Assembly: GCA_016213945.1 (NCBI GenBank)
Contig: JACQZF010000029.1
Span: forward strand, 3,981 to 67,980
Length of the DNA: 64,000 nucleotides
From: Nitrospirota bacterium
Lineage (GTDB): Bacteria; Nitrospirota; Thermodesulfovibrionia; UBA6902
Reading direction: 5' to 3'
Shown here: in pieces, positions 7,693-49,162 of the stretch
Numbering within the stretch: position 1 is the first letter of the stretch
Layout of the letters: the number at the start of each line of letters is the position of its first letter
Notes under the pieces: generated by a model
What the model saw: only the letters and a program-made list of their open reading frames with translations
What the model was told of the DNA's origin: nothing
The model's database searches: none
Position numbers and translations under genes: made by a program

Positions 7693-8808
7693 TTAATATC
7701 CACAGATCGCGCAGATTAAAAAAGACATCTGTGTAAATTCGCGTAATCTGCGGCCCTTGAAATATTCAATCGCTCCCGCAATTGCTCCGGTCCCGACCGG
7801 AAGGGGATAGAGCATACTGTAGTATATAAAAGCCTGCACGGCGAATAAAATGCCCCCTGTCTCAAAAAACGCCTTTAACAATCTCCTGCTTATAAATGCA
7901 TTCAAAATGAAGATGAGAAGCAGAACGAACAATAAAGCAGGCTGTTGTAAAACCGCTGTCACGAGCAAAGTTATCACGCTCAGAAGATATGAAGCAACAT
8001 CGGTCTTTAATTCTACCGAGGCTGTGCCGGAGTCTGTGAGCAGGTCTTTGTTTTTCAACGAATACATGTTCCAGTATTTGGATTTCCTGTAAGCGTTCTT
8101 CAACGATCTAAGGAGAGAAAAATTAAATATGTGCTGCACCTGAATGTCAGGCTCCATAACAAGCCTGCATCCCATACTTCTCAGCCTGTGGCTGAACTCT
8201 ACGTCTTCGATAATCGGCAGAAAAACTTCAGGAAAGCCGCCGCTCATTTTAAAGATCTCCGCGTCAATTATCATTGCGTGGGCGGCGATATAATCGGGGT
8301 CCTCAATGTTTTTGGTCTCGGAATAATTTATGTATACAGACTGAAAGATGCTGAAGAAATTTCTGTCATAGGGCATCCGGGTGTATGTGCCTCCGATTAA
8401 TAATCCCCCTGTATCCCCCTTTTTCAAAGGGGGAATTCCTTCCTTACTCCTCCCCTTATCTAAGGGGAGGCCGGGTGGGGTTATGGGGTGTGAAGACACG
8501 AATGCCCTGTTTGCAATCGCCAGCGTATCTTTCTGAAAGATGCAGTCTGCGTCGGTGAAGAAGATGATCTCGCCGCTGCTGTTCTCTGCCCCGGTATTGC
8601 GCGCTTTTGATGTCCCTGAGCGTTTTTCAAGGCTGATGAGTTTGCAGGGAAACTTTCTTATGATCTCAACGGACCCGTCTTCTGAACGGTCATCAACAAC
8701 GATGACTTCAAAGTTCTTATATCGGGAGGCAAATATGGACTCAAGACATTTGCCTATAGTCGCGGCCTTATTGTAATTCGGGATGACTACGGAGATACTT
8801 TTTTCCAT
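7693..8808 (-). CDS. GT2 family glycosyltransferase with C-terminal membrane helices
   Basis: ISVVIPNYN, VVDDRSEDGS, ARNTG, FTDADC, EDVEF; carries an in-frame repeat insertion at 8402-8482. Confidence 0.9.
   Translation of the reverse strand: MEKSISVVIPNYNKAATIGKCLESIFASRYKNFEVIVVDDRSEDGSVEIIRKFPCKLISLEKRSGTSKARNTGAENSSGEIIFFTDADCIFQKDTLAIANRAFVSSHPITPPGLPLDKGRSKEGIPPLKKGDTGGLLIGGTYTRMPYDRNFFSIFQSVYINYSETKNIEDPDYIAAHAMIIDAEIFKMSGGFPEVFLPIIEDVEFSHRLRSMGCRLVMEPDIQVQHIFNFSLLRSLKNAYRKSKYWNMYSLKNKDLLTDSGTASVELKTDVASYLLSVITLLVTAVLQQPALLFVLLLIFILNAFISRRLLKAFFETGGILFAVQAFIYYSMLYPLPVGTGAIAGAIEYFKGRRLREFTQMSFLICAICGY
7698..7753. repeat. CGCAGAT/ATCTGCG tandem-palindromic repeat overlapping the GT2 3' end
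   Basis: atccacagatcgcgcagatt...atctgtgtaaattcgcgtaatctgcgg; related copy at 37612-37689. Confidence 0.75.
8402..8482. repeat. Coding-embedded double-hairpin repeat family B, copy 1
   Basis: aatccccctgtatccccctttttcaaaggggga...cctccccttatctaaggggaggccgggtggggtt; closely similar to 47244-47330. Confidence 0.9.
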
Positions 8809-8861
8809 TTCGATTGTTTTATTATAATATACCTTAAGAAAGGCTGAAAAAGGAGAGAAGA

Positions 8862-9131
8862 ATGGCTAAAAAAATAGCGGTACTCGTCAGGGACAGAAAG
8901 CCTGAGGCATTGAGGATGGCGGTCGGGGCCACGCTTGCAAATGATCAGGTAACTGTATTTGTAATGGATGATGAGCTTGAGGAAGATGATGAGATATCGC
9001 TAAACCTGGAGATGTTGAGCTCTTTAAGGGCCCGGATAATCTCCAATAACAAAAAGAACAATTTTGAACAGAAGACCACAGAAGAGATCGCCGCGATGCT
9101 CGCAGAATACGATGTCATAATCCCTTATTGA
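8862..9131 (+). CDS. Small DsrE/DsrF-like protein
   Basis: EALRMAVG..L and AEYDVIIPY, typical of DsrE/F-fold small proteins; GGAG RBS. Confidence 0.6.
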   Translation: MAKKIAVLVRDRKPEALRMAVGATLANDQVTVFVMDDELEEDDEISLNLEMLSSLRARIISNNKKNNFEQKTTEEIAAMLAEYDVIIPY

Positions 9132-9213
9132 TTACAGTTCTCAGCCGTCAACTCATTGACAAATTGCGCATATAATTCTAAATTATAATCAACCTAAAAA
9201 ATTCGAGGTATCA

Positions 9214-10482
9214 ATGCTCAATAAAGTAGAAGCACTATCGCCGACAACAAAAAGGCTCCAGATCAATATCCCGCCGGACGTCATCAAGTCCGAGACGGAC
9301 AGCGTTTACAGCAAACTAAGGACGACTACCAGGATACCGGGCTTCAGGCCTGGCAAGGTCCCCCAGGCCATTCTTGAAAAGAGGTTTAGCAAGAACGTTG
9401 AAGCCGAGGTCATAGAAAAGATCGTACCCAGGTATTATCTGGAGGCCCTCAAGGAGGCGAATTTAGAGCCGGTCAGCTATCCCAACATAGACGATAAAAT
9501 AGAGATCGTGCCGGGGCAGCCGCTTTCATTCAGTGTGACAGTGGAGGTAAAGCCGGAAATTGGGGATATAAAATATGAAGGCATCGTGCTGAGAGAAAAG
9601 GCCGTCATAATTGAAGAAGAGGATGTGGAAAAAACCCTTAAACTGATGCAGGAAAGCAAGGCCTTGTTTACGGTTACTGAAGAAGCGTTGAATGAAGACG
9701 ACATGGCCATCATCGATTGCAATGCCTTTGTTGATGGTAATGAGCTCAAGGAAATGTCATACAAGGAATATCCCATGCTCCTTGGCCCTGATGCAATGCC
9801 CAGGGAATTTGTGAGCGCCCTGATCGGCAAGAAGAAAGGCGATACTGTTGAGGCGAAGATAACCATGGAGCAGGACAATCCGAACAAGGCCATTGCGGGA
9901 AAAGAGGTTTTATTTAAAATAAATATTACAGAGGCCAAGAAGAAAAATGTTCCGCCCCTGGATGATGAATTTGCAAAGGAAGCCGAATGCGGCAGCCTTG
10001 ATGAGCTGAAAAACAGGGTCCGCGAAAATCTCTCCGCCAGAAAGAAAAGCCAGATAAACCTGGAATACAAAAAAGACATCCTGAACGAGTTGATTAATAA
10101 ACATGCTTTTGACATCCCGGACTCTATGCTGCATGGTGAGATCGAATCCCTTATCTACCAGGCAAAGCAGAATGCGGAGAGAAAGGGCGAGGCCATAACA
10201 ACCCCTGAAGAAGAATTGAAAAGGCAATATGAAGTAACCGCAAAAGAAAACGTCAAGGGCGTGCTCCTTCTTGAGGCAATCGGCAGGCAGGCACACATTG
10301 AGGTAAGCGATGCCGATGTTAAAGAAGCGGTCGGCGAGATCGCAGCCCGTAACGGCCTGAAACCCGAAGAGGTGATGCGGCTTTACAGTATGAGAGAAGG
10401 CTCAATGGACGCCATGAAAAGCAGGCTGTTCGCGGACAAGGTCCTCGAATTTATCTTAGGCAAAGCTACGATAGAAAATTAA
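9214..10482 (+). CDS. tig: Trigger factor
   Basis: [10 protein letters not shown] ribosome-binding motif, LDDEFAK; upstream of clpP-clpX. Confidence 0.96.
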
Positions 10483-10483
10483 C

Positions 10484-10508
10484 GGGGTGTATCGCGATAC
10501 GCCTCTAC
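10484..10508 (-). repeat. Single REP-like palindrome with GTAG foot
   Basis: Minus strand reads GTAG-AGGCGTATCG-CGATACACCCC. Confidence 0.5.
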
Positions 10509-10528
10509 TTTCCAACCAAGGAGACAAA

Positions 10529-11125
10529 ATGAGTTTAATACCAATTGTAATAGAACAAACCGGCAGGTCTGAAAGGGCGTATGATATCTATTCAAGGCTT
10601 CTGAAAGACAGGATCGTCTTTATAGGCACTCCCATTGACGATATAGTGTCAAATACGGTCATTGCCCAGTTGCTTTTTCTTCAGACCGAAGACGCTGAAA
10701 AAGACATTCACCTTTATATAAATTCTCCCGGCGGCGTTGTTTCCTCGGGCCTCGCAATCTATGACACGATGCAATATATCAAGCCGGACATCTCAACATA
10801 CTGCATCGGGCAGGCAGCCAGTATGGGCGCGCTCCTTTTGACCGCCGGCACAAAAGGAAAAAGGTTTGTGCTGCCTAATTCCCGCGTCATGATACACCAG
10901 CCTATTGGAGGTTTCTACGGGCAGGCCACGGATGTGGAGATCCACGCAAGGGAGATCCTGAAGATGAAGGACAATCTCAATAAGATCCTCGCAAAACATA
11001 CAGGCCAGACTCTTGAAAAGATACAGGTTGACACCGAAAGGGACTATTTCATGTCCGGGCAGGAAGCCAAGGACTACGGCCTCGTTGATGAAGTGATAGA
11101 GACCCTGAAAAAGCGGGCGGAATAA
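10529..11125 (+). CDS. clpP: ATP-dependent Clp protease proteolytic subunit
   Basis: [33 protein letters not shown]; start placed at the ATG after GGAG. Confidence 0.98.
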
Positions 11126-11149
11126 TCAAGGTAATTTTGGAGATTCACT

Positions 11150-12403
11150 ATGAATGATAAAAAAACAAACAAAAACGAAAACAGTATCCTAACATGCTCT
11201 TTCTGCGGCAAGACCCAGAAGGAGGTAAGAAAGCTCATTGCCGGGCCTACAGTGTATATCTGCGATGAATGCATAAACCTCTGTAACGAAATAATGGCAG
11301 AGGAGCTCAGTTCATCCTTTGACATCAATATTACACAGAAGATCCCCACCCCGAAGGAGATAAAGCACTTTCTTAGTGATTACGTCATAGAGCAGGACCA
11401 TGCCAAGAAGATCCTGTCAGTAGCGGTGCACAATCATTACAAGAGGGTAAACAGCCCCAAGCAGGCAGATATTGAACTGCAAAAGAGCAACATCCTTCTC
11501 ATTGGCCCGACCGGAACAGGCAAGACCATTCTCGCGCAGACGCTCGCGAAATTCCTTGACGTGCCTTTTACCATTGCTGACGCCACAACGCTTACGGAAG
11601 CTGGATATGTCGGGGAAGACGTTGAGAACATTATCCTCAAGCTCATACAGGCTGCGGATTATGACGTTGAAAGGGCGCAGCGCGGCATCATCTACATTGA
11701 CGAGATCGACAAGATAAGCCGTAAGACCGAGAACGTTTCAATAACGAGAGATGTCTCAGGCGAAGGTGTTCAGCAGGCGCTTCTGAAAATCATAGAAGGC
11801 ACCATTGCGAATGTCCCGCCCCAGGGCGGCAGGAAACACCCGCAGCAGGAATACATCCCGGTCAACACGGCCAACATACTCTTTATCTGCGGAGGCGCGT
11901 TTATCGGCCTTGAAAAAATCATAGAGGACAGAATGGGCAAGAAGGTTGTCGGCTTCGGCTCAGAGCCGAAGGTGCACGGCAAAAAAATAGATGAGTCGCT
12001 CAAGCATGTGCAGCCCCAGGACCTGATCAAGTACGGGCTTATCCCTGAATTCGTGGGCAGGCTCCCTGTTGTTGCAACACTGGAAGAGCTGAGCGAATCA
12101 GCGCTTGTTAGAATCCTCACGGAACCAAAGAATGCGATCATAAAACAGTACCAGAGGCTTCTCTCTTTTGATAATGTTAAGCTGAAATTCACAGACACTG
12201 CGCTTGCGGCCATCGCAAAAGAGGCCATCAGGCGCAAGACCGGCGCGCGCGGCTTGAGGGCGATCCTCGAAGACATCATGCTTGATGTCATGTACGAGAT
12301 GCCGTCACAGAGCGAAGTCAGGGAATGTCTGATAACGGAAGAAGTGGTCACCAAGAGGGAAAAGCCTATCCTCGGTTATAAAGAACACGCAGAGTCCGCG
12401 TAG
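11150..12403 (+). CDS. clpX: Clp protease ATP-binding subunit ClpX
   Basis: CSFCGK..CDEC zinc domain, [31 protein letters not shown]. Confidence 0.98.
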
Positions 12404-12419
12404 TGTATCAGAAAAAAAC

Positions 12420-13346: not shown

Positions 13347-13355
13347 TTCTCCTGC

Positions 13356-13384
13356 TTGACAAATGCTTTTAGAGTATATACTAT
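13356..13384 (+). promoter_or_regulatory. Sigma70-type promoter of the TA operon with an overlapping palindrome
   Basis: TTGACA (13356-13361), 17 bp, TACTAT (13379-13384); palindrome AGTATATACT at 13373-13382. Confidence 0.65.
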
Positions 13385-13409
13385 GGGTAGTACCAGAGGA
13401 GGTAAAATC

Positions 13410-13649
13410 ATGTCTAAGACACTTTCGTTAAAACTTAAAGATGAAGTTTTTAATGAGACGGAAGACATTCTCGAAAAAATACATAAACCGAGGAATTCAT
13501 ATATTAATGAAGCAGTAAGTTTCTACAACAAATTTATTAAAAGAAACTTACTTAGGAAACGTTTAAAAAAAGAATCCCGTGTGGTGTCCGCATCTTCTCT
13601 TGCAGTTTTACATGAACTGGAACTTTTAGAAGATGAGATACCCGAGTGA
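13410..13649 (+). CDS. Putative type II antitoxin (RHH-like)
   Basis: GGAGG RBS; KTLSLKL..RNSYINEAV RHH-like N-terminus; acidic tail; GTGA overlap with the toxin. Confidence 0.75.
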   Translation: MSKTLSLKLKDEVFNETEDILEKIHKPRNSYINEAVSFYNKFIKRNLLRKRLKKESRVVSASSLAVLHELELLEDEIPE

Positions 13650-13987: not shown

Positions 13988-14014
13988 ATTCATATCTGCC
14001 GGAAAGGGGACAAC

Positions 14015-14302: not shown

Positions 14303-14525
14303 CCCGGAAGGACTTAAGGAAAAAGCAAGACCCGCGCTTGCAACCCATTGGGATGATTTAACAAGTCGAAATAAATTCATCGTTATTCAAAAAAGAATAG
14401 AAGATACGTCTTGGACGGTCGTGGGTTCTTGGGGGTTCAGATTCGTTATATATGAGAAATGCCTTAAGATATTTCTCTATGCACTGCTGACAATGGAAAC
14501 AGATAGAGTTGGGAAGTTTCTCATT

Positions 14526-24381: not shown

Positions 24382-25374
24382 ATGCCTGAGTTAAGAAAGG
24401 ACCCGGTATCCGGCAGATGGGTTATTATTTCAGTTGAAAGGGGCAAGCGCCCTACTGATTTCGGAATGAGGACCCTCACGAAAAAAGGGGGCTTCTGCGC
24501 CTTCTGCGAGGGTAACGAGCGTACAACACCTGTAGAAATTTTAGCCTTCAGACCGGATGGCAGCAAACCTAATACACCCGGGTGGACTCTCAGGGTTGTT
24601 CCGAATAAATTCCCCGCCCTGCACATTGAGGGCAACTTAAACAGGGCCGGCGAAGGCATATTTGACAAGATGAACGGCATCGGCGCGCATGAGGTAATTG
24701 TAGAAACCCCCAATCACAGCCTGACGCTATCAACCATGCCACTGAAATCAATTGAGGATGCCCTCTGGGCATTTCATCACCGGATCACAGACCTTAAAAG
24801 GGACCCGCGTTTTAAATATGTGCTCGTTTTTAAAAATGAAGGCGAGGAGGCAGGCGCTTCGCTTGAACACACACATTCTCAACTGATAGCCCTCCCCATT
24901 GTCCCGCACCTGGTAGAGGAAGAAATTGAACAGGCAAAGCAATATTACAGCTATAAAGAGCGCTGCATTTTCTGCGACATAATGCGTCAGGAGCTAAACA
25001 GCAAGGCACGCGTCATCTCAGAGAATGACGATTTCATTGCGCTTGCGCCGTTTGCGCCACGTTCGCCGTTTGAGACAATGATATTGCCCAGGAAGCATGA
25101 ATCCAGTTTTATGCCTGACGGCAAGTTCACCCTTCTGGCGCAGATCCTTCAAAAAACGCTGAAGCAGATTGACAAGGTGCTTGAGATGCCGCCGTATAAT
25201 CTGATGATCCACACATCGCCGTTTAAAATCGAGACGAATGAATATTACCACTGGCATATAGAAATAATACCCAAACTCACAAAGATTGCAGGTTTTGAAT
25301 GGGGGTCGGGGTTTTATATTAACCCCATGCCGCCTGAAGACGCCGCGAAATTCATGAGAGAAGCGGAGATATAG
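24382..25374 (+). CDS. galT: Galactose-1-phosphate uridylyltransferase family
   Basis: MPELRKDP, CAFCEGNE, NKFPAL, AGASLEHTHSQ (HxHxQ), AGFEWGSG. Confidence 0.92.
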   Translation: MPELRKDPVSGRWVIISVERGKRPTDFGMRTLTKKGGFCAFCEGNERTTPVEILAFRPDGSKPNTPGWTLRVVPNKFPALHIEGNLNRAGEGIFDKMNGIGAHEVIVETPNHSLTLSTMPLKSIEDALWAFHHRITDLKRDPRFKYVLVFKNEGEEAGASLEHTHSQLIALPIVPHLVEEEIEQAKQYYSYKERCIFCDIMRQELNSKARVISENDDFIALAPFAPRSPFETMILPRKHESSFMPDGKFTLLAQILQKTLKQIDKVLEMPPYNLMIHTSPFKIETNEYYHWHIEIIPKLTKIAGFEWGSGFYINPMPPEDAAKFMREAEI

Positions 25375-25407
25375 CTATTAGCTATTAGCTGATAGCCATT
25401 AGCTTAA

Positions 25408-29141: not shown

Positions 29142-29234
29142 GGAGAGGTGGCCGAGCCGGTCGAAGGCAGCCGCCTGCTAAGCGGTTGTGGGGGTAACAC
29201 CTCACCCAGGGTTCGAATCCCTGCCTCTCCGCCA
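29142..29234 (+). tRNA. tRNA-Ser(GCT)
   Basis: GGAGAGG/CCTCTCC acceptor stem, anticodon arm gccgc-ctGCTaa-gcggt, long variable arm, GTTCGAATCC, encoded CCA. Confidence 0.97.
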
Positions 29235-30140: not shown

Positions 30141-30217
30141 GCGCCCATAGCTCAATTGGATAGAGTGCCGGACTACGAATCCGTAGGTTGCAGGTTCGAC
30201 TCCTGCTGGGCGCGCCA
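30141..30217 (+). tRNA. tRNA-Arg(ACG)
   Basis: GCGCCCA/TGGGCGC acceptor stem, TAGCTCAATTGGATAGAG D-arm, ctACGaa loop, GTTCGACTCC, encoded CCA. Confidence 0.96.
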
Positions 30218-31261: not shown

Positions 31262-31306
31262 GGTTTTAGCTATTAGCTTATTGCTGAAAGCTAATAGCTG
31301 CCTTCC

Positions 31307-32299: not shown

Positions 32300-32310
32300 A
32301 CTGAATATTT

Positions 32311-32386
32311 AGCCACTAATTTACACGAATGTTCACGAATTGAAAGACAATATTTCATTAGTGAAAATTCGTGCTTATTCGTGGCT
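32311..32386. repeat. CACGAAT/ATTCGTG tandem-palindromic repeat
   Basis: agccactaatttacacgaatgttcacgaat...attagtgaaaattcgtgcttattcgtggct; supplies the hypB stop codon. Confidence 0.8.
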
Positions 32387-33121
32387 GATTAAATGTTCCT
32401 TTAAAAATTTAATCCAATCATCCATACCTTCTCCGGTTTTTGATGACAATTCAATAGTTGCCAGAGAAGGGTTCAGGGACAGCGCGTCTTTTTTGATCTT
32501 CTGCATATCAAAATCAAAATATTGCACGAGATCGGTCTTTGAGATGATAAGCAGATGTGCGGTCTTGATGGCCTTCGGGTATTTTAAAGGCTTGTCATGC
32601 CCTTCGGGAACTGATATGAGCACAACCCTTAAATGCTCGCCGAGGTCAAAGAATGAAGGGCACACAAGATTGCCCACGTTTTCTATGAAGAGGACATCAA
32701 GCCTCTTGCCGTTTAAACTATGCTCCAGTGAATGGAACCCTTTGTGAACAAGAATGGAATCCAGATGACACGCGCCTCCGGTTGTAAGCTGTACGGCGGG
32801 GACGCCTTTTTTCCTGATCCTCTCGGCATCGAGGTCTGTCTCGATGTCGCCTTCGAGCACGCCGATATTGATCTCGCCTTTCAGCGCGTCAATGGTCTTT
32901 TCAAGCAGCGTGGTCTTGCCGGAGCCGGGGGAGCTTATGATGTTAATTGCGAAGATCCCGTCTTCGTCAAAGTGCCTTCTGTTTCCAGCGGCAGCATCTT
33001 CGTTTGCTTTGAGAAGGCTCTGATTCACGTCTATAACTTTAACCTCTTTTTGTCCCCCATTTTCAAGGGGGGAAACAGGGGGGTGTTGATGCTCATGACC
33101 GCATCCGCACACGTCACACAT
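32375..33121 (-). CDS. hypB: Hydrogenase nickel-incorporation GTPase HypB
   Basis: N-terminal CxxCGC, SSPGSGKTT, ACHL, ENVGNLVCP, DKPLKYP. Confidence 0.97.
   Translation of the reverse strand: MCDVCGCGHEHQHPPVSPLENGGQKEVKVIDVNQSLLKANEDAAAGNRRHFDEDGIFAINIISSPGSGKTTLLEKTIDALKGEINIGVLEGDIETDLDAERIRKKGVPAVQLTTGGACHLDSILVHKGFHSLEHSLNGKRLDVLFIENVGNLVCPSFFDLGEHLRVVLISVPEGHDKPLKYPKAIKTAHLLIISKTDLVQYFDFDMQKIKKDALSLNPSLATIELSSKTGEGMDDWIKFLKEHLISHE
33053..33085. repeat. Repeat family B half copy inside hypB (opposite orientation)
   Basis: Minus strand cacccccctgtttccccccttgaaaatggggga resembles plus strand aatccccctgtatccccctttttcaaaggggga at 8402; encodes HPPVSPLENGG. Confidence 0.65.
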
Positions 33122-33762: not shown

Positions 33763-33839
33763 GTAACGGGTAACGCGTGACGAGTAACGCGTGAAAAATC
33801 TCATCCGGTTCCCGTCACTCGTTACTCGTCACTTATCAC
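33763..33839. repeat. GTAACGC/GTGACGA tandem-palindromic repeat
   Basis: gtaacgggtaacgcgtgacgagtaacgcgtga...gtcactcgttactcgtcacttatcac. Confidence 0.8.
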
Positions 33840-34117
33840 TTAGCGTAACTATCTCAGCCTCTTTGGTATGCGTATCGAATATCATGACCGTTGCTGAATT
33901 ACCGAAGCCGTGGGCTGTTCCGGGATTGAGAGCCAAGGTGTTCCCCGTCTTTTCGTATTCACATTTATGCGTGTGCCCGTAGATGACAACATCATATTTG
34001 CCGCATTGGATCAAGGCGTCTTTCATCTGTAACTCCGTCCCGTGGTAACAGGCAAACTTCAGATTTTTTAATGTTCTCAATATGGTCATGCGAATCCGAG
34101 ATGATGCCGATTTTCAT
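33829..34117 (-). pseudogene. YfcE/MJ0936 metallophosphoesterase with internal deletion
   Basis: ATG at 34117 gives MKIGIISDSHDHIENIKKS, joined out of frame to LKFACYHGT..YGHTH..LNPG; the GD and GNND motifs are missing. Confidence 0.8.
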
Positions 34118-36298: not shown

Positions 36299-37585
36299 TC
36301 AAAACTTATAGATCACCATCCCGGTCAAAAGCTTCGGGTAGAAATAAGTCGACTTCGGCGGCATTCTTTCACCCGCGATAGCGACTTCCTTGACGTCATG
36401 AATTCTTGTTGGATTCAGAAAAAAAACCGCCTCGAACGAACCCTTCCTGGCCCTTTCCAGCGCGACAGCAGCGTCCATTTCATATTCATAATGCTCTATC
36501 TTTAACAGCTTCTCAAATACCAGCTTGTGAAGCACCGTCACATCAAGATTTTTCAAACACTCCGGCATGTCCAATTCGATTTTTGAACCGCTTGTCGAAA
36601 GAGTGTAATAGTTATTTGTGTTGGTAAGGAACATCCCGAAGGAATGCGCCTTATTTCGCATGGCCTCAAACATCTGCTGACGCGCCTGCTGCTCCGGTAC
36701 GCCGGGCGCGCTCATTTTCTGTATGTCGAAATATTTTTTCAGGGTCTCTTTTATGTTGATGTTTGAATCCACCTCAACGATCCTGTGTGTTGGCAGGAGG
36801 GTCAGGCCGTCGTCTTCTATGTTGGCAAGAAACATCAGGGTATAATTATACGGTTCCTCTCCAGTCTGAATGAGCCCTTTTTCTTCCATCTCTTTCTTGA
36901 ACTTGAGAGATGTCTCATAACGGTGATGCCCGTCGGCGATGAAAATGTCCTTGTCAGCCATCTCTTTTTTGATCGTATCGATTGCGACATTGTCATTTAT
37001 GCGCCATAGCCTGTGAATGAAACCGTCTCCGTTCTTTGCCTCTATAAAAGGTTTCTCCGCGGAAATGTTTTCAAGAATGGAAGAAGTCCTCTTCTCCTTA
37101 CTGCTGTAAAGTGAAAAAATCGGGCTTGTGTGCGCCTGGCAATATTTAAGAATATTGAGCCTGTCGGATTTCGGCTTTGAATAAGTCATCTCATGCGGAT
37201 GGATCCTGCCCGTTCCAAGCTCTTCAATCCTTACAGCGCCGAGAAAGCCCCGTGCCTTTAAAATCTCCCCTTCCCCTCCTTTGGGTGAGGGGAGGTTATA
37301 ACTAATTTCATAACAATAAAATGCCGGCTCCGCGTCCCGGTTTAACACTCCCTCATCCAGCCAGTCAGAAATAAAATTTGCCGCCCTTGTGTAACGGTTT
37401 TCATTTTCATTGTCATCATCGCTGTCCTTGCCGAAATCAATGCGGATGATATTGTGTGGGCTTTTTCTATAAAGCGTTTCCTTGAATTCAGGCGTAACAA
37501 TATCATACGGCGGCGCCATCGTTACATTGGCGTCCACCTTCTGCGGATTATACAAAACACCTTTAAACGGAATTACCTCTGCCAT
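36299..37585 (-). CDS. DUF1015 family protein
   Basis: PFKG..Y, APPYDIV, IHPHE.T, IADGHHRYET, MPPKSTYFYPKL. Confidence 0.93.
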   Translation of the reverse strand: MAEVIPFKGVLYNPQKVDANVTMAPPYDIVTPEFKETLYRKSPHNIIRIDFGKDSDDDNENENRYTRAANFISDWLDEGVLNRDAEPAFYCYEISYNLPSPKGGEGEILKARGFLGAVRIEELGTGRIHPHEMTYSKPKSDRLNILKYCQAHTSPIFSLYSSKEKRTSSILENISAEKPFIEAKNGDGFIHRLWRINDNVAIDTIKKEMADKDIFIADGHHRYETSLKFKKEMEEKGLIQTGEEPYNYTLMFLANIEDDGLTLLPTHRIVEVDSNINIKETLKKYFDIQKMSAPGVPEQQARQQMFEAMRNKAHSFGMFLTNTNNYYTLSTSGSKIELDMPECLKNLDVTVLHKLVFEKLLKIEHYEYEMDAAVALERARKGSFEAVFFLNPTRIHDVKEVAIAGERMPPKSTYFYPKLLTGMVIYKF

Positions 37586-37611
37586 AATTTTTTTATTCAA
37601 TGGTAAATTTT

Positions 37612-37689
37612 ATCCGCAGATTTCGCAGATTGCACAGATTAAAGAAAAATCTTTTAAATAATCTGTGGGAATCTGAGTAATCTGTGGAT
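37612..37689. repeat. CGCAGAT/ATCTGTG tandem-palindromic repeat
   Basis: atccgcagatttcgcagattgcacagatt...aatctgtgggaatctgagtaatctgtggat. Confidence 0.8.
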
Positions 37690-37738
37690 TATTTTTTCTT
37701 CTTCGTGCCTCTGTGGTAATTTATCCATCTAACATATA

Positions 37739-38272: not shown

Positions 38273-38296
38273 ATCGTTCTCCTTTATAAATTGTTT

Positions 38297-38456
38297 AGTC
38301 ACGAATCAACACGAATTGTCACGAATTAAAATTCATGCTCCTGAATCCTGACCGTCATTCTGGCTTGTCCAGAATCTTTTAAAAGCAGGATTCCCGACAA
38401 GCGGGAATGACAGACACTTTATAAATATTAGTGTAAATTCGTGTTCACTCGTGGCT
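38297..38456. repeat. CACGAAT tandem-palindromic repeat with a nested family A copy (38354-38412)
   Basis: agtcacgaatcaacacgaattgtcacgaat...[gtcattctggcttgtccagaatc...gattcccgacaagcgggaatgac]...attagtgtaaattcgtgttcactcgtggct. Confidence 0.85.
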
Positions 38457-38471
38457 GAAAGATTATTCATA

Positions 38472-39233
38472 TTAAATGCAACCATCATCATATTCTTTTA
38501 TCTTAGGTATCACATCCAGGAACAATTTGATGACATTGCTGGCATTTTTTTTCATTGTATCAAGGATCATCTCCCAGGTTACAGGCGCCTCTTCCTCGTG
38601 CCAGCAGTCATAATCCGTTGACATCGCTATCGCGGCGTAGTGCATTTTCTTCTCCCTGGCAAGAACAACTTCGGGGACCGTGCTCATGTTGATCACATCT
38701 GCGTTCCAGCTTCTGAACATGTGGCTTTCAGCCTTTGTGGAGAAGCGGGGGCCTTCAATTGTGATAACGGTCTTGTTTTTATGAAAAGGCAATCCCATAT
38801 GATTTGCCGACAGTGAAAGCAGATCAATAAGATTCTGACAGAACGGCTCAGCCATCGGTGTATGCACGACAACGTCCTCGTCAAAAAATGTAGTCTCTCT
38901 CCTCCTCGTGTGGTCAATGAACTGGCTGGGGAATACAAGATGTCCCGGCGCTATGTCCTGCCGCAGTGAACCTACAGCGGTCGAGGCAAGGATGTGCGTG
39001 CAGCCCTGTTCTTTCAAGGCATAAATGTTGGCCCTGAAATTTACCTTGCTCGGATAGATCGAGTGGTTCTTGCCGTGGCGGGCGATGATAACAACGTCCA
39101 CCCCTTCAATTGAGCCGCACGTAAGTACCGACGTAGGTGAGCCGTACGGCGTTTCAACTTCAATCTCCCTTGCGTTTTTGAGGATATTGGGGTCATCAAG
39201 TCCCGACCCGCCGATAATTCCAACCTTAATCAT
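38472..39233 (-). CDS. mtnP: S-methyl-5'-thioadenosine phosphorylase
   Basis: GIIGGSG, TPYG, ARHG..H, EGPRFST.AES, NMST.PE, TDYDCW. Confidence 0.95.
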   Translation of the reverse strand: MIKVGIIGGSGLDDPNILKNAREIEVETPYGSPTSVLTCGSIEGVDVVIIARHGKNHSIYPSKVNFRANIYALKEQGCTHILASTAVGSLRQDIAPGHLVFPSQFIDHTRRRETTFFDEDVVVHTPMAEPFCQNLIDLLSLSANHMGLPFHKNKTVITIEGPRFSTKAESHMFRSWNADVINMSTVPEVVLAREKKMHYAAIAMSTDYDCWHEEEAPVTWEMILDTMKKNASNVIKLFLDVIPKIKEYDDGCI

Positions 39234-40539: not shown

Positions 40540-40578
40540 TGATTGGTGAGTGTGCCACCATAGAAGTTTTCCAGACGA

Positions 40579-43500
40579 TTACATCTTATTATATTTCTCA
40601 TACAAGCCCCTCAGGAATTCATAACCTTTCATCCCGTAAATATTACATATGTTATCAGCATCTTCTTTATTCTGGTTGATATACAGTTTTTCAACAATTG
40701 ACCGGATATGCTCTTGTCTGAAATCAGCAATAAAATGTTCAAGCATTTTCAAGAATATCTTGCCTACATAGCCAATGCTTTTTGGATCGTCAAATTTATC
40801 GAGATATTCAATAATGAATGAAGAATGATAATTTTCATTTATATAAGGAGCTGCTAATAGTAACCACCTTGAATATTCTGCATTAATATGAGGAAGAAAG
40901 ATGGTAAGTTTTCCCAGGGCAGACAGGATTTTTTTGTCATCTGCGCCTATGTCCGTCTCTGGTTTTGTCTTATATCTATTATCATAGATCCATTTCCAGC
41001 AAGAGATAATTTTATCGACAATTTTCCGGCTCTCTTCTTTTTCATCCTCAATATATTTCTGCTGTGACCATAAGAAGCTGACAACGTCCAATATTTGTTC
41101 TCGATTCCAAGCATTTAAAACCTTCCTGAATAAACTTTCAGGGTTGTTTACATCTTCTTTTCCAAGCAAATATTCAAGGGCTATATGCTGTGCCAAATGT
41201 TCATTATCATGTTTATTTTTAAACTCATGTGTTATTCCATATTTATAGTGAGGAATCATAAGGTTATAAAGTTCATCGTAAACTTGCCCAATTGATAAGT
41301 ATCCGTCTATAAAAGCTTCCCAGTATTTATCATCTGTCACCGGATACAAGCTTTTCACTTTCTCTTCAGCCCATGTTTTGTCCAAATAGAACAAATTAGG
41401 CAGATATCGACCAAGCATCGTATAGCTTTCAATGATTTTAATTTTTAACAGCTCATTATATTTTCCCTTAATTTCATCACTCCACTTAACTTCCGATGTA
41501 TCCCCTTTCTTATCTTTGACACGGGCAATACGCAATGCATGATTAATGAGTGCGATGATCGTCTTCCCATGAGGGGAGTTTAGGGCATGTGTTACATAGT
41601 CCGTTATCTCCTTTTCTTCTTCAGCTTCTAACTTGCTGAGAATCAGGAAAATTATTTCTTCTGCCTTTGGGAAATATTTTTCATCATATGCCCATGAATC
41701 ATCTCTTGTTCCGTCTTGTACGAGCTGCATAATTGCACCGATAATCCAGAAATGATTGGCTCCGCCGAGAAAGTCTCCTTTTTCAACTATGAATTCATCT
41801 CTCCCAAATTCATCTCTGTTAATATACAGATGCATAAATTCAAATAATTTGTCCCAGGCAATGTCCAGCTTTTTACTCCATGCTTCCCTTGCGCCATCAA
41901 GAATTTCATAAATATAGGTAAATCCGGAGTTAATGAATGGATATAAGTCATCGATAAATTTATTTGGTTTCTCAGCAACACATTCTTTTATCAATCTTGC
42001 CAATCCTCCAACCGTGGGGCCTTCTTCCCAAAAACCTGTTGACTTAAAATCCTTGAGGTATGAAGGGAGTGTTTTTGCAGACAACATTTTCAGGATTTCT
42101 TCTTTGGATAATGGTGAAGGTCCCCCGCCTTCACGGACGTGAATCTCCCCTACGGCAGCATGTAAGCCAACATCCCTTCCAGTTTGAGACTTAAGAGATT
42201 CATATAATTCTTTAAATTCTGGAAATTTTACAAGTGCCTGACATCTTTCCTGTTTCCACTCTGCAATGTGTCTTTCTGCATCTTCCTCAGGAACGAATCC
42301 GGGGCCATCCTTTAGTTTCTTGATTATTAATTCTTTCTGATGAGGTGATAGTTCTGTTAAATTCTCTAAAATGTGTTTCAACTCATCTCCGAAGTATATT
42401 TCCCCAAAGATAAGATTACTCGTATCTTTTCCCAATACATTCCAGAATATGTCGTTATATATATTGGCATTATTACCGATGATATAAAGAGCCATCTTCG
42501 GGAAATAAAAATATTTATCCATGAAAAAGTCTTCCAATATCTTTTTTGTTTCATCGGCATGGTTTCTTGACCGTATCATTAGAATACTTTTCAAGACAAA
42601 TGAAAGTACCTCAAGCGGGTCTGTGAGGTGGGTTCTTGATCCATCATAAAAACTTGCATGTGTTTCCTCATCATGAAAGTTGAAATATAGCCTATAAATA
42701 TCTCTTTTCAATTCTTTTGTCTCTATGCTCTTAAACAGCACATCTTTCGTTAAATCATCAAACAGGTTAGATGAGAAGTTATCTAATGTCGTCTCATCCA
42801 TTGTTATTTTCTGAAGTGGTGTTCCTTCCAGTTTCTTCTTCATAAACACATATTCATAGACATCAGACCCAGATTTCTCGCCCATGTCAAAAACCTTTAC
42901 TAAATATTTACCGTCAACAGATGTAAGCGCTAACAGATATGCTTTATCTCCTGCCTCGAAAGGAATTAATGAGTCATCTTTTTTCAGTAGAGTGCGTATC
43001 TTTTCACATAAAGCATAAACAACACTGTTCGTACACTTTTCTCCAATGTCCTTGATGTGCTTTTCAAATATATCCTTTACCCAGTATGAATCTATAACAA
43101 GCTTATATTCCTCTTCCCTGTTATAGATTCTGGCTCTCTCTTCGGACAACTTAACGGACTTCACATTAGTTATATAATCAACAATTCGCTCGGCTTTAGT
43201 AATATCCTCTGAGAAAGGATTTCCAGACAAAAAATTAGGCAATAATTTAAGGCCAAGTTCTGAGCCGACAAGAGATGCATCAAACCTGGAACTAAGCCAA
43301 ACAGGAATTAACTCAATAATATTAATCGGTATTTTTTCTCTCGGAATATTAAGCAAGATTAATACAAAGCTTCGCCATGTATGGTAGTTATCAACATGTT
43401 GGCCATCTGAGTTTTTATGGTTTGAAACTTCTTTAATGATTTGCAGTAACTCATCTATATACTTTTCATTGCCTCGTTCTTTGACTTGCTCAGACACCTT

Positions 43501-44193
43501 TTCCAAATAAGATAGAACATTCCACCAAGGGATTGAATAAAACCCTTCTTGCTCAGCAGGCTTGGGGCCAAGTGCATTTATTGCATCGAAATATTCCCCA
43601 GCTTTTAAAACATTGAACCAGTGGAGTGCTGTAACTTGTTTGAAAAAATAATTTTTATAAGGTTCATTTTGTATCAACTCCAGAATGAAGTTCACTTCAT
43701 GACGAGACGGTCCTTGCTTTTTCAAAATCAAATCGACATGTTCAATATTTTCAAAGTATTTATCCTGATATTTTGATATTTCCTCCGTCTTTGTTTTTTT
43801 TCTGATTGGTTCAATTAATTTTTGATATTGTGAATCTACAATAAAATTGCGCTCGAATTTTACACTATAAATATCATGAAGCAATGGAGGGGCCTCATTA
43901 AATTCTAATTCGAGCAATACTGGAAGTATTACAACGTAATCTTTACCCATCTGTCTCATCAATGTTGAATTAAGCTCCCTCAAAACCCACTCACTTTTGA
44001 TGGAATATTCGGAAATAACTACAATCAAGAAACTGCTCTTTTCTAAGCCTTCGCTAATCTTTTGAACAATGGAATCACCAATTTCTAATTCCCAATCGTC
44101 AATCCACACATCGATATTATCTTTTTTCATCTTTCCTGCTAATTGCAGCACAAAATCATGATCTTTAGATGTGTGTGATATAAATACTTTCAT
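40579..44193 (-). CDS. TIR-domain protein with ~1050-aa predicted helical C-terminal region (putative defence sensor/effector)
   Basis: MKVFISH..KD, VWID, SSFLIVVIS, SEWVLREL (catalytic Glu intact); AT-rich; ATGA overlap with the upstream SIR2 gene. Confidence 0.88.
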   Translation of the reverse strand: MKVFISHTSKDHDFVLQLAGKMKKDNIDVWIDDWELEIGDSIVQKISEGLEKSSFLIVVISEYSIKSEWVLRELNSTLMRQMGKDYVVILPVLLELEFNEAPPLLHDIYSVKFERNFIVDSQYQKLIEPIRKKTKTEEISKYQDKYFENIEHVDLILKKQGPSRHEVNFILELIQNEPYKNYFFKQVTALHWFNVLKAGEYFDAINALGPKPAEQEGFYSIPWWNVLSYLEKVSEQVKERGNEKYIDELLQIIKEVSNHKNSDGQHVDNYHTWRSFVLILLNIPREKIPINIIELIPVWLSSRFDASLVGSELGLKLLPNFLSGNPFSEDITKAERIVDYITNVKSVKLSEERARIYNREEEYKLVIDSYWVKDIFEKHIKDIGEKCTNSVVYALCEKIRTLLKKDDSLIPFEAGDKAYLLALTSVDGKYLVKVFDMGEKSGSDVYEYVFMKKKLEGTPLQKITMDETTLDNFSSNLFDDLTKDVLFKSIETKELKRDIYRLYFNFHDEETHASFYDGSRTHLTDPLEVLSFVLKSILMIRSRNHADETKKILEDFFMDKYFYFPKMALYIIGNNANIYNDIFWNVLGKDTSNLIFGEIYFGDELKHILENLTELSPHQKELIIKKLKDGPGFVPEEDAERHIAEWKQERCQALVKFPEFKELYESLKSQTGRDVGLHAAVGEIHVREGGGPSPLSKEEILKMLSAKTLPSYLKDFKSTGFWEEGPTVGGLARLIKECVAEKPNKFIDDLYPFINSGFTYIYEILDGAREAWSKKLDIAWDKLFEFMHLYINRDEFGRDEFIVEKGDFLGGANHFWIIGAIMQLVQDGTRDDSWAYDEKYFPKAEEIIFLILSKLEAEEEKEITDYVTHALNSPHGKTIIALINHALRIARVKDKKGDTSEVKWSDEIKGKYNELLKIKIIESYTMLGRYLPNLFYLDKTWAEEKVKSLYPVTDDKYWEAFIDGYLSIGQVYDELYNLMIPHYKYGITHEFKNKHDNEHLAQHIALEYLLGKEDVNNPESLFRKVLNAWNREQILDVVSFLWSQQKYIEDEKEESRKIVDKIISCWKWIYDNRYKTKPETDIGADDKKILSALGKLTIFLPHINAEYSRWLLLAAPYINENYHSSFIIEYLDKFDDPKSIGYVGKIFLKMLEHFIADFRQEHIRSIVEKLYINQNKEDADNICNIYGMKGYEFLRGLYEKYNKM

Positions 44194-45062: not shown

Positions 45063-45138
45063 ATCAAGTTTCCATAATGCTTAATGCATAGTTCATTTAT
45101 TAATCATCTTTTTTCCCATCCACCGCCTGCCTGAACAT

Positions 45139-45238
45139 TTTAATCTCTTAGGGTCTAATTCCCCGTAGCTCTGCTACGTTCTGATAAGATGATGTTGTTC
45201 TTTGATACCTCGTTAGCTCTGCTGCGAGGTAGTTCATT
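45139..45238. mobile_element. Possible non-autonomous hairpin-ended element remnant
   Basis: Two related hairpins, cgtagc-tct-gctacg (45164-45178) and tacctcg...cgaggta (45206-45231), sharing agctctgct; at the island edge. Confidence 0.4.
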
Positions 45239-45257
45239 GTCTTTTTTGAACTGATTC

Positions 45258-46013
45258 TCAATTCATCCCGCAGCACTTCTTGTATTTCTTGCCGCTGCCG
45301 CAGGGACATGGATCATTACGGCCGATTCTCACTGTATGACTTGCAACGGATTGAGTAAAAGGGTGAAGGTGTTCTTTCCCCAGCGTTTTTGCATAAGCCT
45401 GCACTGTTGAAACAGCTCTTGGCAACAAGGCGAAAAGGGTAGCCTCCAACTTCAAGTCAGAATCATTTATCTCAGGATCATGCCCTGTTTTTTCAAAAAC
45501 CTCAGGGATGTTCTCCGGCGTTGCAACCGAAATAATGATACCGAGACTGGTTACAATTTCCTGCTCTTCCTCTGTTATTGTCTCTTCAGCACGGTCCCCA
45601 AATTCCCAGATTTCATACCGTAAAGTTATTGCCTGATAAAGACCATACGTCCAGTCGCGTATACGCGGAATGTCCCCTTTTTTCAACGCCCCTATATCGA
45701 AGGGGAAGAAAAGTCTTTCGCTATGGTTTTCATCAGACAGTATGTTACAGATTTTGAAAAGATGCCCCATTAACTCCTCTGCTTCACCTTCGCTCTCAAA
45801 TTCCATCATCTCTTCACCGAAAGCTACTGGCAGCCACTCACTCGGTTTAATCAGTTCCGGAGTGATTGCAAGACCGAAGAGAAAGCCGTGTAGAGCCTCC
45901 AGATTAAATGCCTCAACCGGGTCAACTACTCTGGATAACAGCTTCATGAGGTTTTTCTTGTCTTTTGTAGTAAACATATCAGTGGTTGTATAACGATTAC
46001 GTCCACGATTCAC
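45258..46013 (-). CDS. UPF0149/YecA family protein with SEC-C motif
   Basis: [19 protein letters not shown]; [18 protein letters not shown]. Confidence 0.9.
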
Positions 46014-46171
46014 CGCTTAATTCTAATCAAATGAAGAATAAACGGCAAGACAAAAATAGTTCAAAAGAGCAATAGAGCAGAAGAGCAAAAGCGAAGAAGA
46101 TCAAAAGGGTGCAAGTGTTACAGTGCTAACGTGCAGACGCTTCATAAATAATGGGGTGTGCTCTTAATTAT

Positions 46172-49162
46172 CTACAGCTCAGTATAGATCGTAACATACA
46201 CCTGTGTCTCGCCGTCTTTTGTGACTCCTTGAGCAATGCCGAAAGCAGGGGTTATTTTCAATTTATATCCAAGCACCATGTCCAGCCGGGCTTCAGCGCC
46301 AACACCGACTGAGATATCGTTAGAGTGAAATTTTTTCTCGCGTCCCCAGACATTGCCTGCGTCAGCAAAGGCGGCGACATGCACTCTGTCCCAGAAGAAC
46401 GGTTTTGTGTTTATGCCCCTGAGGATGTACTTCACAGGTAACCTGTACTCAAGCGTTCCCTTTGCAACGTGTTTGCCTGTCTGAAAACCTGAAGAAAATC
46501 CCCTGATGGAATATTCATTGCCGGGGATGCCGCCAACGCTGAACGCCTGCTGGGCGATCAGGTCCCCGCCTGATGCGGCCCCCTTCAGGTTTATATAGAG
46601 CACATGGTGTTTCCACGTTTTGATGTACTCTTCATATTTCAATTTATACTCTTCCTGGCCCAGGTCGCTGCCGATGTCCCCGGAATAATTTTTGTAAAGA
46701 AAGGAAATGTTCCTTCCTTCTTCCCTGCTTATTGAATAGGGGTATTTCAACGCGTTTGTAAATTCAAGGCCCGCAAAAACGTTGCTCCTTCTGCCCTCAA
46801 ATACTTCAAGCCCGTCAACTCTTCTGCCCTCTACGTCCGTCAGATGCTTGAGCGTTTCCGTATTGAAGCCGGCAACAAGGTTGAGACTTGTCTCAAGGTT
46901 GGTAAAGAGCGGGAACCTTGCTCCGGCAGTGAAGCCGCTCCGCCTCTCGTAGAAATTGTCGTCGTCATTGAAGAATTCCGAATAGAAAATTGGCGCGCTG
47001 TACGCCCTGATAAAAAAAGTAGGATACCATCTGTCATAGATATAATTTAAATTGTAATACCCTCTATGGCCCACGCCGTATCCGCCCTGCAGTATGTAGG
47101 TATGGTATCCAAGCACGTCCTGCCCCGCGGTGAATGCGCCGAATACCGCGCCGTCATTATCAAACGAAAGAGTAGGCATCCAGAACTTGGGCAGCAGGGT
47201 TTTTCCCGGGCAGTACGGCCTTTTTTCAGAGGGCTGTTTTAAAAATCCCCCTTCATCCCCCTTTTTCAAAGGGGGACTTGATTCCCCCTCTTCACTCCTC
47301 CCCTTTTTTAAGGGGAGGCCGGGAGGGGTTACTGCTAAATCATTTGTTTTTGGTGCATCGCTTTTCCATTCCGGGGTTATCCTTGGGCTCAATGTATCAG
47401 ACCATTGAGAGACGTCATAGGGCATCTCCGCAAGGTAAAAACCTTTTGAACTGTATCCGGTAAAGAATATTTTCCCGTCCTTTGATACTTCGGGGTGAAA
47501 GGTCCCGCCTAACACATGCGATACCTGAAAGAGTTTCTTGTCCGTGATGGAATACGCAAAGAGGTTATACACCCCCGTCCTGTCCGATGCAAATATAATA
47601 GTCTTTCCGTCAGGGGCCCACGAAGGATAAACGTTATTGTAATTGTTGGTGATGAGTGTCTCCGCTGTTTTTGTCTCAACGTTGAGCAGCTCAATGGATG
47701 TTTGCCCTGAGTAGTTGTGTCTTGCAAAGGCAATAGCCCTTCCGTCAGGCGACCATCTCGGAGATGACAGGGCTGAATCCTGAAAATCAGCAATGACATT
47801 AATCCTGTTAGAAGCAATATCCAAAACAGAAATGTTTTGCCTGCCGGTCTCCACCTTTACAAAAGCAATCTGTTTGCTGTCAGAAGAAACGTCAACATCC
47901 TTGGCGCGTAAATTCTCTGTTATGCGGCTGACTGCCCTCATTGCAAGGTCATATGAATAAATATCCTGATAAAGATTGTAGACGTTCCTCAATTCAGCCT
48001 GCGTGAAATAAAGTTTCTGCCCGTCAGGCGACCATGAAAGATTTGAATCAGATGGAAATCTTCTGACGGCTGCAACCTCTTTAAGCGTTGCTGTTTCAAC
48101 GATCACGATTTCCTCATGCTGGTGCGGGTCTTTCCTGTTAATGGCGAGATATCTGCCATCAGGAGAGAGCCGTGCGTTTGTAACCCTCTCGCCTTCAATT
48201 TTCAATTTAGTGTAATTTGTCAGGGGCCTTGCATTCAGCTCCTGTATTTTTTTGTTCTGGTCTTTTTTCAGGTCGGCAATCGTGTCTTCATAGAGCTCTG
48301 AGTAATTCTTTCCCGTAATTCTCTCTGGAGGGCCGCTTATGAGAAACGGAAGCCGTCCCGCGTGCGCGTAGCTGAGCTTGCCGATATTTTCATTTCCATA
48401 GGTTTGCGCGATATGTTTTTCAAGCAGCATCCCGTAGATGTAAGGGATGTTTCCTGACGGCCAGTAGGGTATGTCCCCGTTTATCTGGTCCACGCCTGGA
48501 AGGCTATCCTCCAAAACCGCCATCCTGAATATCATTTCAACATAAGGGCTCTTTCCCCTTCCTGCCTGGGTGTATTCGCTCTCCGCCCATGTGGCAGTGC
48601 CTTCAAGCCACCAGTCAGGCATGAATACATTCGGCGGGGCAGTCAATAAAAACACGAGAAACGACAGCGGGTCGTATCCCGGCAGTGGCTTGCCGAAGAT
48701 GCTTCTCGTTATCTCTGAATAGCCTCTTGAGGTGTCCATTGTAATGATATGTGTATATTCGTGGAGAATGATATACCCGAGCCAGTCATCATACTCCGCA
48801 ATGGTCATGTCAGGCATCGGGGGCACGGCAAAAATATATATCATGTTATAGGGAAGGACATTGGCAAAACCGTTTGCGAAATCGGAATGGTCGATAAGAA
48901 CGATCTGGGTTTTTTCTTTGGGATACCACTGAAAGCTGCCGGACAATTTCTGATGAATATCTTCGGCAATTGCAGCCGCCCTGTTTGCGGTCTCGTCTTC
49001 GCCCTGATGGAAGTGGATGGAGAAATGTGCCGTCTCGATGGTTGAAAATCTAAATGACGGGTCAATGGTTGCCGAAAGGGCAGTCAGGGGAATTGTAAAA
49101 ACTACAGCCGTGAAAAGCAGAAAAAAAAATAACAGGTGCGGTTTATATGTCTTTTTTTTCAT
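46172..49162 (-). CDS. Outer-membrane protein: gluzincin-like domain, TolB/PD40 propeller and Omp85/BamA-like barrel
   Basis: Signal peptide, HEYTH..WWLEGTA, repeated WSPDG, IRGF..EYRLP..FADAGNVW; in-frame repeat in the linker. Confidence 0.8.
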   Translation of the reverse strand: MKKKTYKPHLLFFFLLFTAVVFTIPLTALSATIDPSFRFSTIETAHFSIHFHQGEDETANRAAAIAEDIHQKLSGSFQWYPKEKTQIVLIDHSDFANGFANVLPYNMIYIFAVPPMPDMTIAEYDDWLGYIILHEYTHIITMDTSRGYSEITRSIFGKPLPGYDPLSFLVFLLTAPPNVFMPDWWLEGTATWAESEYTQAGRGKSPYVEMIFRMAVLEDSLPGVDQINGDIPYWPSGNIPYIYGMLLEKHIAQTYGNENIGKLSYAHAGRLPFLISGPPERITGKNYSELYEDTIADLKKDQNKKIQELNARPLTNYTKLKIEGERVTNARLSPDGRYLAINRKDPHQHEEIVIVETATLKEVAAVRRFPSDSNLSWSPDGQKLYFTQAELRNVYNLYQDIYSYDLAMRAVSRITENLRAKDVDVSSDSKQIAFVKVETGRQNISVLDIASNRINVIADFQDSALSSPRWSPDGRAIAFARHNYSGQTSIELLNVETKTAETLITNNYNNVYPSWAPDGKTIIFASDRTGVYNLFAYSITDKKLFQVSHVLGGTFHPEVSKDGKIFFTGYSSKGFYLAEMPYDVSQWSDTLSPRITPEWKSDAPKTNDLAVTPPGLPLKKGRSEEGESSPPLKKGDEGGFLKQPSEKRPYCPGKTLLPKFWMPTLSFDNDGAVFGAFTAGQDVLGYHTYILQGGYGVGHRGYYNLNYIYDRWYPTFFIRAYSAPIFYSEFFNDDDNFYERRSGFTAGARFPLFTNLETSLNLVAGFNTETLKHLTDVEGRRVDGLEVFEGRRSNVFAGLEFTNALKYPYSISREEGRNISFLYKNYSGDIGSDLGQEEYKLKYEEYIKTWKHHVLYINLKGAASGGDLIAQQAFSVGGIPGNEYSIRGFSSGFQTGKHVAKGTLEYRLPVKYILRGINTKPFFWDRVHVAAFADAGNVWGREKKFHSNDISVGVGAEARLDMVLGYKLKITPAFGIAQGVTKDGETQVYVTIYTEL
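47244..47330. repeat. Coding-embedded double-hairpin repeat family B, copy 2
   Basis: aatcccccttcatccccctttttcaaaggggga...cctccccttttttaaggggaggccgggaggggtt. Confidence 0.9.

Follow-up and report, generated by a model that had tools for sequence, protein, structure and literature searches.

In-frame triplex-type repeats in protein-coding genes of a Nitrospirota bacterium and the DUF559 nuclease gene that the same repeats bracket

Copies of a palindromic repeat interrupt four unrelated protein-coding genes in a 64,000-nucleotide (nt) stretch of contig JACQZF010000029.1 (positions 3,981 to 67,980, forward strand; hereafter 'the window') from the Nitrospirota bacterium assembly GCA_016213945.1. 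These copies are real in-frame insertions, derived from repeat DNA, in unrelated proteins. By geometry and base triads the unit is, at the level of sequence, an intrastrand triplex repeat of the BoxC/PIT/TM (triplex motif) type. The units have a defined anatomy with a covarying mirror strand, are polymorphic in their insertion among relatives, are filtered for reading frame within genes, and bracket genes for DUF559, a Vsr-like nuclease. It is reasonably probable that the inserts represent the structured ends of a DUF559 cassette, copied without the gene, and that the nuclease of this cassette drives their spread.

Repeat units in the window and across the genome

The gene for a family-2 glycosyltransferase (GT2; 7693..8808, minus strand, 371 aa) contained a doublet. 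Its first unit (8402..8434, minus strand) comprised a 9-bp stem, a 3-nt loop, a second 3-nt loop and a 9-nt mirror strand, with no mismatches, and gave the peptide PPLKKGDTGG; the second (8449..8482, plus strand) had a 4-nt first loop, gave TPPGLPLDKGR from the opposite strand, and was shared with the relative G005. Another doublet occupied the linker between the propeller and barrel of a protein combining a PD40 beta-propeller with an Omp85-like barrel (46172..49162, minus strand, 996 aa), with units at 47244..47276 (minus strand, SPPLKKGDEGG) and 47297..47330 (plus strand, TPPGLPLKKGR from the opposite strand); loose ends of other metagenome contigs clustered at 47242 and 47276. Both doublets are outward-facing pairs. 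The hypB gene (32375..33121, minus strand, 248 aa, TIGR00073 above cut-off) held a single unit (33053..33085, plus strand) in the His-rich N-terminal linker, with one stem mismatch and one triad mismatch. In the gene for a DUF1015 protein (36299..37600, minus strand, 433 aa), an internally deleted copy of 36 nt (37262..37297, no strand assigned) retained leader, partial hairpin and tail; it reads as NLPSPKGGEGEI and replaced about seven ancestral codons. The host labels were backed by Pfam and NCBIfam (GT2; PD40 propeller with a weak Omp85 match; HypB; DUF1015). The strict finder scored the four doublet units and a looser finder added 33053-33085 (plus strand), while the DUF1015 copy was scored by neither. 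Linker placement of three inserts was based on alignments and domain borders; for the fourth, the predicted structure of the DUF1015 host (mean predicted local distance difference test score, pLDDT, 43) drew the insert as a coil flanked by a strand on each side, and was not counted as evidence.

A preliminary description of this DNA had placed double hairpins at 8402-8482 and 47244-47330, and their position, orientation, frame and quoted peptides were all exact. The peptides that it gave for HypB (HPPVSPLENGG) and DUF1015 (NLPSPKGGEGE) are likewise present, and the open reading frames (ORFs) of all four hosts are open. Its remark that no intergenic copy was seen holds for the window itself; 700-790 nt ahead of its first position, however, there is a pair between genes, and intergenic copies of the family occur genome-wide. 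The hairpins were correctly recognized, but the third strand and the bracketing of DUF559 were overlooked.

Orthologues of the four host genes were sought in ten other genomes of the genus. Orthologues from distant taxa carrying the same peptides had been named in advance as an observation that would speak against the preliminary reading; within the genus, the HypB insert was absent from 8 of 10 orthologues, the DUF1015 insert from 8 of 9 that could be aligned, and the GT2 insert from 5 of 9 usable ones. The propeller gene was found in four of the ten genomes, of which one was filled, one was empty (G004) and two had another palindrome or a remnant; in G005, the linker held a different, GTAG-type palindrome at the same place. 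Two independent insertions are suggested for the DUF1015 site, which was empty in the closest relative (92% identical) but filled, at the same junction, by a 45-nt element of a different subtype in a distant one (76%, G008). The window DNA occurs in groundwater metagenomes, and contigs of four DNA runs from one study, which are prone to drop rare variants, contained no allele lacking the inserts of the window.

Each unit is a 33-nt module made up of a 9-bp stem with a 3-nt loop, a second loop of 3 nt and a 9-nt strand mirroring the purine arm. Among 188 hairpin/side pairs, agreement between the tail and the mirrored purine arm was 7.71 of 9 when the second loop was 3 nt; shuffled tails gave 6.57 +/- 0.07 of 9 and none of 2000 shuffles reached 7.71. 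The fit to G.G, A.A and T.A triads also peaked at 3-nt spacing, where 129 of the 188 pairs scored at least 8. The two strands covaried: arm G was matched by tail G in 134 of 143 cases (position 5) and arm A by tail A or T in 94 of 98 (position 7), counts that overstate independence, since copies of the same subtype are related. The two ends of the DUF559 cassette described below differ in the position of A, and each tail tracks its own arm. A direct-repeat model of the tail fitted more poorly than the mirror model (best 5.5 of 9, versus 7.7).

The genome comprises 3.5 Mb in 101 contigs (46% GC). The strict finder identified 191 units at 130 loci, and none in the reversed genome, while the core pattern had 159 matches against 2 in the reversed control. 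The first loop was 3 nt long in 159 of the 191 units and the second in 152, and a hairpin scan returned 207 pyrimidine-left hairpins versus 23 of the mirror type. The loci consisted of 69 single units, 25 outward-facing pairs, 32 outward pairs with one shared hairpin and 4 inward pairs; beyond the 33-nt unit, composites measured 44-47 nt or 72-110 nt. Genome counts were taken from this strict list rather than from a first list of 156 elements, about six of which were false positives by eye. Rfam at the gathering threshold had no match at the repeats, and its only matches in the window were two tRNA genes (29142-29231 and 30141-30214). A G-run at 53450-53487 was found to be part of the IF-2 gene, with no unit.

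With genes called by our own caller (3258 genes, 87% coding), 81 of the 130 loci fell wholly inside genes, 71 in number; this was below the expectation of random placement, and the other 49 loci were not so enclosed. Among ten chosen hosts, the seven named were DNA polymerase III alpha (dnaE), PriA, MnmG, GlnE, two RND transporters and a P-type ATPase. Between two and four separate inserts per gene were seen at C83:7518-13741, C18:73205-79498 and C78:14218-17070, indicating that some operons are heavily colonised.

Comparison with G005, based on the first list, covered 2.28 Mb of that relative's approximately 3.4 Mb, with both flanks present for 70 of the 156 elements. Length differences between the two genomes were multiples of three at 31 of 33 coding sites, but at only 7 of 24 non-coding sites (Fisher p = 3e-7; three neighbouring pairs are counted twice), and the two coding exceptions were an alignment slip and an element lying across a stop. 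Such an excess within genes indicates that inserts were filtered as translated sequence. Both orientations occurred in genes (59 versus 62 units); one codon phase was avoided (7 of 121 units), and 41% of hairpins carry a stop in that phase. The insert-bearing genes are still under purifying selection (median ratio of nonsynonymous to synonymous substitution, dN/dS, 0.106; maximum 0.22; 31 genes). The inserts are very probably in place and translated by read-through, and those within genes are likely to be read as short Pro/Gly loops that persist when the frame is open.

Copies have been gained, lost and have decayed between close relatives. No overlap indicating target-site duplication was found at any of 28 hand-picked differing sites, and every one showed a replaced patch, although the relative's allele could itself be derived. 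Membership among miniature inverted-repeat transposable elements was rejected on the lack of duplication at these sites.

DUF559 genes between repeat units

A single DUF559 gene is present in the genome, with one inward-facing unit on either side, and the neighbours of this cassette are a glycosyltransferase gene and a gene read from its sequence as amidotransferase-like. No other of the 3258 genes has precisely one inward-facing unit on each flank, although in five of them units occur close to both ends in different arrangements. The gene and its bracketing units are also polymorphic as one block: the whole cassette is missing from the orthologous site in G005, where a short heptamer-type repeat sits, while one DUF559 cassette of G005 is absent here. 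The predicted structure of the protein (pLDDT 82) matched 3HRL and the catalytic domain of the homing endonuclease I-Bth0305I, and the motif E-x-D-G-x-x-H was invariant in all 14 DUF559 proteins aligned.

DUF559 was matched in 27 of 41 genomes. A unit lay within 150 nt of 21 of 22 near-full-length DUF559 loci, a set made up of 21 from relatives and the one in this genome, compared with none of 85 control windows; units flanked 18 of the 22 on both sides, and 15 had an inward pair. Two cassettes, with ends facing outward, were fused in frame into HsdS and a DNA methylase (L011:784-2355 and L033:1-2298), and a G005 cassette stood in frame inside an 895-aa ORF read as a DNA methylase (C23 near 178383-178706). 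Of 23 DUF559 loci belonging to other taxa, 11 had one or both sides scored by the strict finder; by eye, a hairpin with a G-rich tail could be recognized in 22, the second loop often containing an additional hairpin. In a tree of 39 proteins, which was quick, had many weak forks and was judged without a formal test, DUF559 clades shared end subtypes across host families and phyla; the protein of this genome fell among Nitrospira and Patescibacteria proteins sharing its end subtypes, and apart from those of its own genus. Direct repeats of whole multi-unit arrays, or tandem ends, were observed at cassettes among L021, L018, L017, L024 and L207, and recombination between direct repeats could leave solo outward-facing doublets. 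A phage collection yielded four weak DUF559-like matches.

In Escherichia coli K-12, an exact TM motif is located about 170 nt beyond the 3' end of the DUF559 gene ycjD, and a degenerate half at the stop of this gene. The ycjD stretch was present in 3375 of 5426 genomes, and is described in the available part of PMC12817139 as occurring in place of the eef operon. In the literature searched, no paper linked DUF559 or ycjD to BoxC or TM, with the reservation that the PMC4666352 supplement on flanking genes lay outside the search and may mention ycjD; the accessible portions of PMC3184786, PMC2267715 and a 2026 preprint contained nothing bearing on DUF559.

Proposed route of spread and alternatives

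The repeats would be moved by DUF559 in the following way. The G-rich strand, when single-stranded, would fold into a purine-motif DNA triplex, which the nuclease would recognize and beside which it would cut. Host repair would then paste the piece in elsewhere, in most cases at the cost of a few codons of the target and without duplicating it. The dispersed, outward-facing doublets would derive from the junction formed when a cassette is excised, or would be solo copies left behind by cassettes flanked by direct repeats. The added peptides would be tolerated passengers in linkers and loops, carrying no functional motif.

A broader proposal, on which our judgement is evenly divided, is that DUF559/YcjD together with BoxC-type repeats constitutes an undescribed class of selfish element. 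Its Vsr-like enzyme of about 120 aa would use a triple helix of single-stranded DNA as the end signal; pieces of 33-110 nt, or the whole cassette, would be pasted by replacing target bases; and protein-coding genes, essential ones included, would be colonised through translation and not through splicing. The bracketing of DUF559 genes and the TM motif beside ycjD of E. coli K-12, a standard laboratory strain, supply a candidate enzyme for triplex repeats, near which no mobility gene was found according to the consulted part of PMC4666352. If the proposal is true, a widespread domain of unknown function would acquire a function, and a DNA triplex a biological role. The repeat-derived peptides in 71 genes, with their turnover between close relatives, also amount to a natural map of insertion-tolerant protein sites. 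In-frame palindromic inserts on their own are only moderately surprising, being already known for Rickettsia palindromic elements (RPEs), repetitive extragenic palindromes (REPs) and Geobacter repeats, as far as the sources cited below extend.

Several observations weigh against spread by the nuclease. Within this genome, the two end subtypes of the resident cassette account for only 17 of the 191 units, most others being of subtypes that match the cassettes of other genomes. Simple internal deletion of the cassette does not account for the dispersed pairs, most of which face outward (25, and 32 with a shared hairpin) and just 4 inward as in the cassette. No joint across the cassette, as left by excision, was found in the contigs of the four runs, from which rare variants are lost. 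Selection on insert-bearing genes is slightly weaker than on other genes (dN/dS 0.106, n = 31, versus 0.081, n = 997; p = 0.002). Elsewhere, repeat counts range from 2 to 372 per genome and are only loosely linked to DUF559 (Mann-Whitney p = 0.028, Spearman 0.46, related genomes not being independent); G009 (99% complete) and G031 have 132 and 135 core matches without a near-full-length DUF559 gene. The strict finder scored both sides in just 4 of the 23 loci from other taxa, and at L227 (Tenacibaculum) a DUF559 domain stands in frame in an ORF of at least 824 aa with no recognisable repeat beside it. The ycjD gene has no motif upstream, that is, a motif on one side only, and the E. coli triplex motif formed no stable triplex in vivo, according to the part of PMC4666352 consulted.

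Some of these points would be accommodated if units spread without any nuclease, through polymerase stalls or breaks and copying by host repair or gene conversion, with DUF559 as a passenger between units or using them as regulatory ends. Repeat-rich genomes lacking full DUF559 exist, replaced patches without duplication fit repair-mediated events, and TM sites are linked to local instability and to polymerase stops in vitro (PMC4666352, in part). Yet the tight, oriented bracketing of DUF559 genes, the intact catalytic-type residues and the match of DUF559 clade to end subtype across phyla suit an enzyme with its substrate better than a passenger; we regard nuclease-free spread as improbable.

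More doubtful again is a shared machinery, RAYT-like or other, that moves several repeat families, or a tendency of elements to target each other's structured DNA, with one family taking the place of another at given sites. Another multi-copy repeat was present at 11 of the 33 differing coding sites in G005, compared with 0.5% of random coding windows, after a first k-mer test with a noisy 9% background had been tightened to at least ten 12-mers. These repeats included GTAG-type palindromes and heptamer/octamer arrays, among others, and the site of the cassette in G005 holds a heptamer-type repeat. Co-location is also expected, however, if tolerated sites are rare; in some cases the other repeat occurs in both genomes, next to the unit without replacing it. 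There are five Y1_Tnp matches in the genome, but none has a triplex unit within 500 nt, and RAYT was rejected as the partner.

A role in RNA or protein, either as a spliced or regulatory RNA hairpin or as a selected PPLxKGG peptide motif, appears very improbable. It could explain why peptides look similar across proteins and why the genes on either side of an intergenic element run in one direction in 48 of 54 cases, compared with 73% of gaps (p = 0.003). The near-equal orientations and the two codon phases, however, produce different peptides, the frame-filtered lengths would be unneeded under splicing, and close relatives differ through gain, loss and decay of copies. The conserved third strand is consistent with a triplex of the purine motif, a structure that RNA cannot form, and TM showed neither promoter nor terminator activity, both according to the consulted part of PMC4666352. 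Movement of gene-less cassette ends by DUF559 remains the preferred explanation.

The window contains further repeats. A second and more abundant palindromic family (GTCATT-type arms, often dimers) is mostly intergenic, with hundreds of matches genome-wide; in the window it was seen at 3116, 16898, 38354-38411, 50612, 51137-51196, 54619, 55604-55663 and 59050-59122, and also at 37605-37720. Heptamer/octamer tandem arrays and a CACGAAT-type inverted family lie between window genes (25371-25391, 31266-31279, 46039-46114, 50715-50758 and 60103-60162; 32308-32406 and 38289-38476). At 34064/34065, adjoining a small ORF (33829-34026), contigs of runs X1 and X2 have 206 extra bases, so the window may hold a deletion or a collapsed assembly. 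The gene at 40579-44193 (minus strand) specifies a protein of 1204 aa in which a TIR domain at the N terminus is combined with a weak Dsr1-like match at the C terminus, and is possibly an anti-phage gene.

Comparison with known systems

DUF559 resembles I-Bth0305I (PDB 3R3P) and Vsr in its catalytic-domain fold and E-x-D-G-x-x-H motif. It differs from EDxHD homing endonucleases, the name we take to cover I-Bth0305I-type enzymes, in being a stand-alone protein of about 120-140 aa with no separate DNA-binding domain seen, no intron, and triplex units on its flanks. The repeats may also resemble the CIR repeats of Caulobacter and the SDR5 repeats of cyanobacteria.

The preliminary description had drawn a parallel with RPEs, which are elements of about 100-150 bp with a conserved peptide, some of them CGTC-tagged, found in frame in protein genes (PMC10969869 and PMC3733652, consulted in part). 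The parallel stands insofar as these are palindromic repeats in frame in unrelated protein genes, with predicted translation and a sequence other than that of RPEs, but it missed the third strand and the BoxC/PIT/TM class. The present repeats have a 33-nt unit, no CGTC tag that could be seen, several peptides in two phases and on both strands, and a mirror third strand; RPE membership was rejected on size, peptide and tag, by description and not by alignment to RPE sequences.

REP/REPIN-RAYT systems and TIRtrons place a small enzyme gene between inverted structured repeats (PMC3733652, in part). As in those systems, many gene-less singlets and dimers occur elsewhere in the genome, some intragenic. 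They differ from REP/REPIN-RAYT in that the enzyme is a Vsr/I-Bth0305I-like nuclease instead of an HUH tyrosine transposase, in the lack of a GTAG tag, and in that movement is here proposed from sequence. Among the multicopy sequences catalogued for Geobacter bemidjiensis (Gbem_R40xx and R5001-5006; Table S6 of PMC2996986), the consensus of R5001-5006, a hairpin with a mirror tail, is almost the same as that of the most frequent subtype in this genome; in the material available from that source, all copies are listed as intergenic, and neither a triplex form nor a nuclease partner is mentioned.

The closest likeness is to BoxC/PIT/TM, the layout of which is given as 9/(3-6)/9/3/9, with a triplex demonstrated in vitro for TM-ECO by circular dichroism and nuclear magnetic resonance (Holder et al. 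2015, PMC4666352, consulted in part); the mechanism and origin of triplex motifs are left unanswered at the close of that paper. The units described here share with TM-ECO a 9-nt C-rich stem, a 3-6-nt loop, a 9-nt G-rich stem, a 3-nt loop and a 9-nt G-rich third strand, together with the G.G, A.A and T.A triads, inverted pairs, variable loci and a copy number that varies strongly between relatives. No window unit, having other stems, matches the exact TM-ECO consensus, which was found at 11 of 230 loci examined, among them E. coli ycjD and, counting a duplicate besides, three DUF559 loci from relatives. All 23 copies in E. coli K-12 are reported as intergenic, with no mobility gene nearby (PMC4666352, in part), whereas here 81 of 130 loci lie within genes and a DUF559 gene is bracketed by the units.

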